Origin: Candidatus Hydrogenedens terephthalaticus JGI OTU-1
Lineage (GTDB): Bacteria; Hydrogenedentota; Hydrogenedentia; Hydrogenedentales; Hydrogenedentaceae
Direction of reading: 5' to 3'
Length of the DNA stretch: 64,000 nucleotides
Assembly (NCBI GenBank): GCA_000493945.1
Contig: AWNW01000001.1
Location: 51,055 to 115,054, forward strand
The notes below the pieces were generated by a model that did not search any database, was not told where the DNA came from, and worked only from the letters and a program-made list of their open reading frames with translations. Position 1 is the stretch's first letter. Each line of letters begins with the position of its first letter. The position numbers and the translations under genes are program-made. This document shows, piece after piece, positions 40,255-40,511 of this stretch.

Positions 40255-40362
40255 ATGATTTTAGCAGACATCCTTAACATCATTGTCAGTGTAATTGTAA
40301 AGTATTTAGCTGGTTGGCTTACCGAACAGTTGTTAGCACTTTTCGGCATAACATCAGCCTAA
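40255..40362 (+). CDS. small leaderless amphipathic/hydrophobic peptide (35 aa), PSM / delta-lysin / leaderless-bacteriocin-like
   Basis: ATG preceded by AAAGGAG 8 nt upstream. Product MILADILNIIVSVIVKYLAGWLTEQLLALFGITSA. It is below the ORF-track length cutoff. Confidence 0.35.
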   Translation: MILADILNIIVSVIVKYLAGWLTEQLLALFGITSA

Positions 40363-40388
40363 ACAACTAACTGAAGGAGGGTAAAAGT

Positions 40389-40511
40389 ATGGATTTTAAT
40401 TTAATATTAAAAGACATCATTGTTAAAGTAGTTGATTATTTAGTAGGCTTTGTAAGCAAAATCATAACGGATTTCTTTTCTGCATTGACAGGGAAAGAGC
40501 CTGTAGATTAA
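40389..40511 (+). CDS. small leaderless amphipathic peptide (40 aa), paralog of the preceding peptide
   Basis: ATG preceded by GAAGGAGG. Product MDFNLILKDIIVKVVDYLVGFVSKIITDFFSALTGKEPVD. It aligns with the upstream peptide (DI.I..V..YL.G.....I...F.AL.G) and resembles staphylococcal PSM/delta-toxin in composition. Confidence 0.35.
   Translation: MDFNLILKDIIVKVVDYLVGFVSKIITDFFSALTGKEPVD

Follow-up and report, generated by a model that had tools for sequence, protein, structure and literature searches.

A conserved tandem pair of leaderless helical microprotein genes upstream of a GH5 glycoside hydrolase gene in Candidatus Hydrogenedens

Introduction

Phenol-soluble modulins (PSMs) and delta-lysin are leaderless products of 20–45 residues that form a single amphipathic α-helix, the PSM-β peptides (~44 residues) being anionic. 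In the psm-α and psm-β operons, a promoter and a terminator delimit a short unit of tandem genes for weakly similar peptides, each with its own strong Shine-Dalgarno (SD) site. PSMs are secreted, formylated peptides with cytolytic or surfactant activity, exported by a dedicated ATP-binding cassette transporter of the Pmt type, and in staphylococci the exporter locus pmt is unlinked to the psm genes. A second described group corresponds to the leaderless class II bacteriocins (enterocin L50A/B, aureocin A70, garvicin KS), two co-encoded leaderless helices of 35–45 residues that presumably cooperate. Here, we describe a tandem pair of short genes, pep1 and pep2, in a stretch of 64,000 nucleotides (nt) from Candidatus Hydrogenedens terephthalaticus JGI OTU-1 (contig AWNW01000001.1, positions 51,055–115,054 of the forward strand; hereafter, the window), located upstream of a gene for a glycoside hydrolase (GH) of family GH5 with a twin-arginine translocation (Tat) type N-terminus.

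A comparison of the pair with the PSMs reveals several common traits, including length, leaderless character, predicted single helix, and non-cationic net charge as in PSM-β. Also, the arrangement of weakly similar tandem genes with strong SD sites in their own short unit, between a promoter and a terminator, is present here, and the exporter, if there is one, is not encoded beside the structural genes. However, no homology with PSMs is detectable, the host belongs to Hydrogenedentota rather than to the staphylococci, the hydrophobicity of pep1 is much higher, pep2 carries an invariant hydrophilic C-terminal tail (LTGKEP), and the pair has a fixed linkage to the GH5 gene, with which it is probably co-transcribed. 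The pair is closest to the anionic PSM-β/delta-lysin class in physical properties and operon layout, yet is not a member of that family, and represents a new orphan family within the general kind of leaderless amphipathic membrane-active small peptides. The explanation to which we assign the highest probability, of roughly 0.4, is a strongly expressed operon whose two leaderless α-helical microproteins would work jointly at an interface that is lipidic or otherwise hydrophobic.

Results and discussion

Coding status and conservation of the peptide genes

Both genes lie on the + strand of the window and their limits include the stop codon, being positions 40255–40362 for pep1 (35 residues, MILADILNIIVSVIVKYLAGWLTEQLLALFGITSA) and 40389–40511 for pep2 (40 residues, MDFNLILKDIIVKVVDYLVGFVSKIITDFFSALTGKEPVD), with a gap of 26 nt between them. 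The coordinates, translations, and separation given by a first-pass annotation of the window are all borne out by its sequence. For comparison, 33 loci (designated by L numbers) were gathered through exact-sequence look-ups, word-indexed searches, pattern scans, and by walking out from GH5 orthologues. In every locus of the low-GC Hydrogenedentota clade (14 DNA haplotypes plus L026 and L029–L031) both open reading frames (ORFs) are found in tandem, with a spacer of 14–50 nt.

The pattern of variation among these loci is that of selection acting on the protein. By codon position, variable sites are distributed as 14/8/29 in pep1 and 18/5/34 in pep2, third-position variation being present in 29 of 31 codons of the former and 34 of 40 codons of the latter. 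Nonsynonymous differences (pN) amount to 0.04–0.26 against synonymous ones (pS) of 0.6–0.9, that is, with synonymous sites near saturation, and the summed pN/pS is 0.17 for pep1 and 0.14 for pep2; several pairwise dN/dS values for the ORFs are in the range of 0.02–0.09. Thus, pep1 and pep2 are genuine protein-coding genes under strong purifying selection at the protein level. Both the third-position variation and the low pN/pS refute the possibility, entertained by the first-pass annotation, that these are sporadic ORFs. Nor does the locus correspond to a conserved noncoding RNA, given that the reading frame is kept and that Rfam, at gathering and E-value thresholds, returns only subthreshold noise over the terminator (U4 and Srn266).

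At the residue level, A4, I9, V11, V13, W21, L22, L27, L29, F30, and G31 of pep1 are invariant, and the LTGKEP sequence at the C-terminus of pep2 is unchanged in all the variants seen. The acidic residue of pep1 is found in relatives at either position 20 or position 24, the other being Gly, and G20 is replaced by E, D, or S. The SD region contains an ATG whose frame is that of pep1 in some relatives (L026) but not in the window; because this in-frame upstream ATG is not conserved, the start at MIL... stands.

A natural variant of pep1 with a lost stop codon is present in L021 (1001–1123), where the protein gains a four-residue extension (ETTN) along with the changes S12R and G20D; the pep2 beside it is unaltered. 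Forms of pep1 with 36–39 residues also occur in L020, L025, L029, and L031, and together with the L021 variant they show that the C-terminus of pep1 tolerates extension. In NCBI records pep2 is labeled "hypothetical protein," and pep1 is skipped by gene callers in most related contigs.

Predicted structure and physical properties of the peptides

The AlphaFold (AF2) model of pep1 is a single helix from residue 2 to 29 (mean predicted local distance difference test score, pLDDT, 89.5), and that of pep2 is a helix from residue 3 to 34 followed by a flexible tail (mean pLDDT 84.9). The pep1 helix is strongly hydrophobic, carries a narrow stripe of polar residues (D5, N8, S12, K16, and T23), and is interrupted by the charged residues D5, K16, and E24. 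The pep2 helix is amphipathic, its 10 charged residues including Lys/Asp pairs at i/i+3–4 on a polar face of ~120°, and no hydrophobic run is longer than 6. The grand average of hydropathy (GRAVY) is 1.55 for pep1 and 0.78 for pep2, and the best 19-residue Kyte-Doolittle window reaches 2.05 and 1.65, respectively. For the maximum 18-residue hydrophobic moment, values of 0.40 (pep1) and 0.56 (pep2) are obtained, compared on the same scale with 0.48 for PSM-β1 and 0.66 for delta-toxin. The net charge is −1 for pep1 and −2 for pep2 in the window and goes from −3 to 0 across variants, none of them, L031 included, being positive. The leaderless amphipathic-helix character proposed from the first reading of the sequence agrees with these models, where single long helices with polar residues on one face are predicted.

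These properties also bear on the main alternative, in which pep1 and pep2 would be envelope proteins kept in the inner membrane of the producer, their heterodimer serving a larger machine as an accessory or regulatory subunit. Such a role could consist in modulating the export, anchoring, or release of the GH5 and neighboring surface proteins, or in adjusting a transporter or sensor, in the way of AcrZ, MgrB, CydX, and KdpF. The pep1 maximum of 2.05 is above the usual transmembrane threshold, and the very strong conservation at the residue level, which extends to particular polar residues and to the invariant LTGKEP tail, is what would be expected of a subunit with a defined partner. However, the pep1 helix is broken by its three charges, and because in pep2 the 10 charges are spread along the helix with hydrophobic runs of at most 6, this peptide cannot be a classical transmembrane segment. 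In both window peptides, the runs free of charged residues are too short to form a classical transmembrane anchor. Moreover, small inner-membrane proteins share with the pair the size, the single helix, and the lack of a signal peptide, and in the case of pep1 also the hydrophobicity, but a pep2 monomer carries too many charges to cross a bilayer. An envelope subunit is possible, although somewhat less probable than the preferred explanation.

Tests of membership in known families

A comparison of both peptides with family collections gave no assignment. Against Pfam-A (hmmscan, E ≤ 10), pep1 matches only Vma12 (E 0.16, taken as noise) and pep2 matches nothing; at the same threshold neither peptide has a match in NCBIfam, and PADLOC and PHROGs give no family match, a phrog of unknown function at E 0.061 being treated as noise. 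Profile searches of the PDB give no relevant match for either peptide. Membership in the PSM/delta-lysin family, as suggested by the first-pass annotation, is thus not supported by any Pfam or NCBIfam profile at E ≤ 10.

The same annotation had considered leaderless two-peptide bacteriocins, which in the manner of enterocin L50A/B would be secreted against competitors. The two short leaderless helical peptides in tandem, their strong expression signals, and the fact that both always co-occur resemble that class. Nonetheless, the known members are strongly cationic, Trp/Lys-rich peptides accompanied by transporter, immunity, and accessory genes, often on mobile elements, whereas the charge of the present peptides (−3 to 0) differs from the +6 of two known leaderless examples. 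Bacteriocin models of Pfam and NCBIfam are unmatched at E ≤ 10, and the general gene annotation of the neighbors includes no ATP-binding cassette (ABC) exporter within ~20 kb on either side, as the first reading of the window had anticipated, and no immunity-like or accessory gene within that distance. Also, bacteriocin loci typically have a patchy and mobile distribution, in contrast to the strong purifying selection and core-like synteny seen here. A bacteriocin is, in consequence, a very unlikely explanation. The marks of class IIb two-peptide bacteriocins are likewise missing from both peptides, which have no double-glycine leader and no conserved GxxxG.

Other candidates were rejected on specific motifs. 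Flp/type IVb pilins were discarded because the G/XXXXEY processing motif of the prepilin leader is absent from both peptides and no Pfam match is found. For TatA/TatE, where a single chain joins an N-terminal transmembrane helix, a hinge, and an amphipathic helix, or for a split TatA, there is no match to MttA_Hcf106 at E ≤ 10, and the "LFG" of pep1 is a three-residue resemblance only. Light-harvesting α/β-type peptides do not fit a non-phototroph and peptides without His, entericidin-type lipoproteins would need a Cys and a lipobox, and precursors of ribosomally synthesized and post-translationally modified peptides are discarded by the lack of Cys and of modification genes.

Relationship between pep1 and pep2

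The two peptides had been proposed to be paralogues aligned in a shared register. BLASTP of pep1 against pep2 returns no match. Nevertheless, hhalign places residues 15–30 of one on residues 15–30 of the other (P = 0.0039), and ungapped BLOSUM62 scores reach 36 at offset +4 and 32 at offset 0, against 5.8 ± 6.0 for shuffled sequences (P ~4e-4). The register claimed at first is that of offset +4; offset 0, which scores about equally, pairs K/D16-Y17-L18-x-G20-W/F21. When 7,771 six-frame pieces are searched with a hidden Markov model (HMM) of each family, the other peptide is the best non-self match (E 0.33 and 0.071), equivalent to 8e-6 to 3e-5 if taken as a single planned comparison, and this reciprocal result is repeated in the independent locus L030. 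Paralogy is thus supported weakly but reproducibly. Since two registers one helical turn apart score alike, convergent helical or amphipathic periodicity stays as a caveat.

Expression signals and RNA elements

The pep1 SD site, AAAGGAG (40242–40248, + strand), is 6 nt before the ATG, and that of pep2, GAAGGAGG (40373–40380, + strand), is 8 nt before it; a spacing of 8 nt had been annotated for both and is correct for pep2 only. Assuming a canonical anti-SD, as the 16S gene lies outside the window, the predicted strengths of −12.9 kcal/mol for pep2 and −11.0 kcal/mol for pep1 are the first and fourth among the 44 genes of the window. Upstream, a sigma-70-like promoter (TTGAGT-N17-TATAAT, 40120–40148, + strand) has 10 of 12 consensus matches, with both hexamers kept in seven diverged Hydrogenedens-group loci, and would place the transcription start of the peptide unit at ~40155. 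Directly upstream of its −35 hexamer, an alignment of 7 diverged loci reveals a + strand A/T-rich block (40083–40119) conserved far above the synonymous sites of the ORFs (pS 0.65–0.9), which is a putative UP element or regulator site. A segment overlapping it (40091–40121) is 87% complementary over 31 nt to 24790–24820, upstream of a minus-strand hybrid-cluster (prismane) gene (23378–24688); this may reflect a UP-element or regulator motif common to the two regions, or AT-rich sequences that match by chance.

The 5′ leader contains a + strand stem-loop (40192–40218), with a 10-bp stem in which 40192–40201 (ATATAACTCC) pairs with 40209–40218 (GGGGTTATAT) around a 7-nt loop. In 8 loci, 98.8% of the alignment cells are paired, two pairs show compensatory changes, and three have G-U wobble variants. 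Because these G-U variants allow pairing in the + strand RNA alone, the hairpin is a feature of the mRNA, and most simply would be a candidate stabilizer of the mRNA or a site for a protein or other regulator. For the entire leader, the minimum free energy fold shows no significant gain in stability over shuffled sequences (z = −1.9), and for this reason only the local hairpin is claimed.

These signals are relevant for another of the earlier proposals, a type I toxin–antitoxin system, in which one or both peptides would be membrane-depolarizing toxins restrained by an antisense RNA. The small hydrophobic helices are reminiscent of TisB, Fst/Ldr, and Hok (GRAVY of 1.62 in TisB, close to that of pep1), the structured and conserved 5′ leader is a conceivable RNA target, and tandem duplication is known in some type I families. 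On the other hand, type I toxins are recognized by an antisense RNA signature and by repressed translation, and at this locus no conserved minus-strand promoter or terminator is seen, the antisense ORFs differ in extent from one locus to another, and the SD sites are close to the consensus, not weak. The saturation of synonymous sites also argues that there is no overlapping RNA-level constraint behind the conservation of the ORFs, and therefore that no overlapping antisense RNA constrains them. Moreover, PADLOC has no match, and the locus is single-copy, syntenic, vertically inherited, and absent from plasmids and phages. This alternative is considered very unlikely.

Downstream of pep2, an intrinsic-terminator-like hairpin (40529–40566, + strand) with a stem of 16–17 bp and a T run ends ~20 nt before the ATG of the GH5 gene. 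It is 93.6% paired in 7 loci, four of its pairs have compensatory changes, and its covariation score is reached by none of 500 shuffles. In every locus with the pair, the GH5 start is 75–100 nt beyond it, a distance where a consensus promoter would not fit; because of this, GH5 expression would probably depend on transcription initiated upstream and reading through the hairpin, which may act as a leaky terminator or attenuator setting the peptide:GH5 ratio. A promoter for GH5 inside the 3′ end of pep2 (TTGACA, 40485–40490) was considered and discarded, since it has no acceptable −10 and is TTAACA in relatives, although a weak one is possible. In Candidatus Hydrogenedens sp. KM4344-31 (L018, 6140–6250), the terminator hairpin is tandemly duplicated before GH5 as two near-identical ATAGCACATAGCGTAAAATTCCGCTATGTGCTATTTTT units.

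This layout, with a small abundant product first, a conserved stem-loop, and differential expression from one promoter, resembles pufBA-hairpin-pufLM and nisA-terminator-nisB. The likeness is architectural only: the peptides have no bacteriochlorophyll-binding His and no Cys/Ser/Thr pattern, modification enzymes are missing, and read-through is a prediction.

The same region would admit that the peptides are functionless, cis-acting leader peptides (upstream ORFs), whose translation controls the hairpin and hence GH5. The position of the hairpin between pep2 and GH5, where there is no room for a separate consensus promoter, is compatible with this. However, full-length conservation of the amino acid sequence of both peptides is unexpected for leader peptides, attenuation does not need two separate strongly initiated cistrons, and an alternative anti-terminator pairing was not identified. 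Classical ribosome-mediated attenuation was rejected because 18 nt separate the pep2 stop from the stem, a distance at which a terminating ribosome would not melt the stem. Leader peptides are accordingly hardly a plausible account of the pair.

Host, distribution, and synteny

The window matches AQRV01000058 of GCA_000402275.1. The host is Candidatus Hydrogenedens (Hydrogenedentota), and related records carry the same names, so the genome is not of the Planctomycetes–Verrucomicrobia–Chlamydiae type that the first-pass annotation supposed. Hydrogenedens corresponds to the former NKB19 lineage, from anaerobic terephthalate-degrading sludge. A statement in PMC6121073, citing Rinke 2013 and Nobu 2015, describes the lineage from metatranscriptomes as a lipolytic glycerol degrader.

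The peptides have a narrow distribution. A full HMMER scan of 1.84 billion representative proteins with the pep2 profile gives one cluster, and word-indexed searches of 5.8 billion clusters give 4 clusters for pep2 and 11 near-identical 90% clusters for pep1, all of one family; for the profile search with pep1, which is shorter than 40 residues, the alignment was headed by the 40-residue ORF of L021. No match to the peptides is found in the viral contigs and plasmids searched, and a full-text literature search with the peptide strings gave nothing relevant. Consequently, pep1 and pep2 are an orphan microprotein family of one Hydrogenedentota clade.

The order of genes is constant, with a GH39-like gene on the minus strand followed by pep1, pep2, the terminator, and the Tat-type GH5 gene, and the ancestral arrangement would be NAD synthase/GH39-like (minus)/pep1/pep2/GH5/large surface proteins. 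The pair is single-copy and its chromosomal position is fixed while the identity of the GH5 goes from 86% down to 59%. Nonetheless, two GH5 orthologues of 55–56% identity lack the pair, one in a GC-rich contig labeled "Hydrogenedens" (L032) and the other in a metagenome-assembled genome of Chthonomonadales (L033), and therefore export of the Tat-type GH5 does not generally need the peptides.

For the envelope-subunit alternative described above, the single copy, the fixed position, the constant distance to GH5, and the lack of nearby exporter or immunity genes and of phage or plasmid copies are favorable observations. On the contrary, the peptide-free orthologues in L032 and L033, the terminator standing between the peptides and GH5, the absence of adjacent partner genes of the CydAB/KdpABC kind, and expression signals that exceed those usual for regulatory small membrane proteins are unfavorable to it.

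Proposed role of the peptide pair

According to the explanation preferred here, in which the two microproteins act together at a hydrophobic interface, the expression signals suggest that the peptides would be made in large amounts, and some transcripts would pass the hairpin, allowing a lower-level expression of GH5. Then, the pep1 and pep2 helices would form a hetero-oligomer that partitions into or onto membranes. Its mode of action would be bulk membrane activity, surfactant-like or pore-forming as in anionic PSM-β or delta-lysin, and not that of an enzyme or a DNA-binding regulator, and the target would be the producer's own envelope or extracellular material.

Several observations weigh against this proposal. 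There is no sequence kinship with PSM, delta-lysin, or any other characterized family of membrane-active peptides, and no exporter gene is present within ~20 kb. The host is presumably diderm, so an extracellular role would require the crossing of two membranes. The near-invariant polar residues and the LTGKEP tail would fit a specific protein partner better than a detergent-like action, and a more specialized function may be suspected from the constant linkage to GH5. Also, the full-length hydrophobic moments are not significantly above those of shuffled sequences (P = 0.17 for pep1 and 0.11 for pep2), because the period of the polar stripe is nearer to 4.0 than to 3.6 residues; in fact, the polar periodicity of the peptides peaks at 90° and not at 100° per residue.

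A bolder version of the proposal is a PSM-like system outside Firmicutes, where a presumably diderm Hydrogenedens scavenging detritus and lipids would release an abundant anionic two-peptide surfactant or cytolysin together with secreted glycoside hydrolases from one transcription unit. This version is regarded as rather improbable.

Neighboring genes and repeats

The constant downstream partner of the peptides is the GH5 gene at 40588–41748 (+ strand), of the endoglucanase/mannanase type (Pfam Cellulase, 2.7e-29), whose closest solved relatives, 1vjz (1.3e-86) and 3w0k (3.8e-73), are endoglucanase/mannanases. The product starts with MERRTFLG, and the RRxFL motif is conserved in all the orthologues seen. 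Of its former description as a Tat-secreted GH5, the family and the twin-arginine motif are supported, but no HMM of a Tat signal matches. An activity as endoglycoceramidase with the peptides as saposin-like activators, suggested by the presence of two ceramidase-like genes in the vicinity, was rejected in view of the solved relatives.

On the other side, the ancestral divergent neighbor is a GH39/GH42-like glycoside hydrolase gene (31161–33140, minus strand), which is directly upstream of the peptides in L011–L014, L018, L020, L025, and L029–L031 and in the window is split from them by a 6.5-kb insertion of four genes (33494–39695). Two copies of a direct repeat bracket the insertion, copy A at ~33204–33343 and copy B at 39890–40035 (+ strand, ~145 bp), with a core of 87 nt and 90% identity (33263–33349 versus 39951–40037). 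In L018, L011–L014, and L029–L031, there is a single copy and no insertion, and the repeat is a duplicated piece of the ancestral intergenic region between the GH39-like gene and the peptides. The element had been annotated as a ~130-bp repeated promoter-like element; the repeat is real, but the predicted promoter at 40120–40148 is downstream of it and not inside, the repeat being context rather than core promoter. It is possible that the inserted genes draw a promoter from the duplicated segment, or that this segment is a trace of how the insertion arose.

Three of the four inserted genes have no family match, and the remaining one (34879–36180) has a neutral/alkaline ceramidase N-terminal domain. 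Together with a gene at 60035–61441, two ceramidase-like genes are present within 25 kb (Ceramidase_alk N-terminal domain, E 9e-13 and, below the Pfam cut-off, 8e-07), which is of note given the lipid scavenging proposed for the lineage.

The remaining neighbors are glycoside hydrolases, unknown secreted proteins, an epimerase, a family 2 glycosyltransferase (GT2), a NagB-like protein, HlyIII, and an aminotransferase. The HlyIII gene (44574–45221), encoding a membrane protein of the haemolysin-III (PAQR) family, is 4 kb downstream of the peptides and syntenic in the closest relatives (L001–L010 and L015); the ancestral arrangement of L011–L014 and L029–L031 lacks this gene, which for that reason is probably unrelated to the peptides.

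Several repeats and genes elsewhere in the window were also observed. Inside the minus-strand ORF 14051–15721, ~11 tandem units of 36 nt (14087–14482; 71–100% identity) would encode a 12-residue repeat in a protein of 556 residues. At 53212–54773 (within ORF 53098–55509) and 56080–56120, there are internal duplications of ~765 bp and many short repeats of GAAGG(N) type, encoding Glu/Gly-rich EGxxEG stretches in large proteins without family match; EG-rich surface proteins are likewise downstream of GH5 in L020 and L011. A gene for a type I restriction enzyme R-subunit-like protein (ResIII, HSDR_N; 16967–19495) adjoins a tRNA gene (20001–20074), and a PhoPQ-activated pathogenicity-related family protein is encoded at 20151–21518.

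Biological implications

Conserved microproteins are still routinely missed by annotation, and this locus gives unusually clean signs of a real, constrained pair, predicted to be strongly expressed, in a candidate phylum without a cultured representative, where it is genetically tied to secreted polysaccharide-degrading enzymes. If the peptides are membrane- or surface-active, PSM-type biology would be extended to a distant lineage, and this may explain part of the scavenging in anaerobic digesters. In the PSM-like version, GH5/GH39-type enzymes and lipases would gain access to their substrates through the loosening of membranes, hydrophobic matrix, or necromass by the peptides. If they are instead envelope subunits, the pair would be a new small-protein partner of a cluster of Tat-exported hydrolases.

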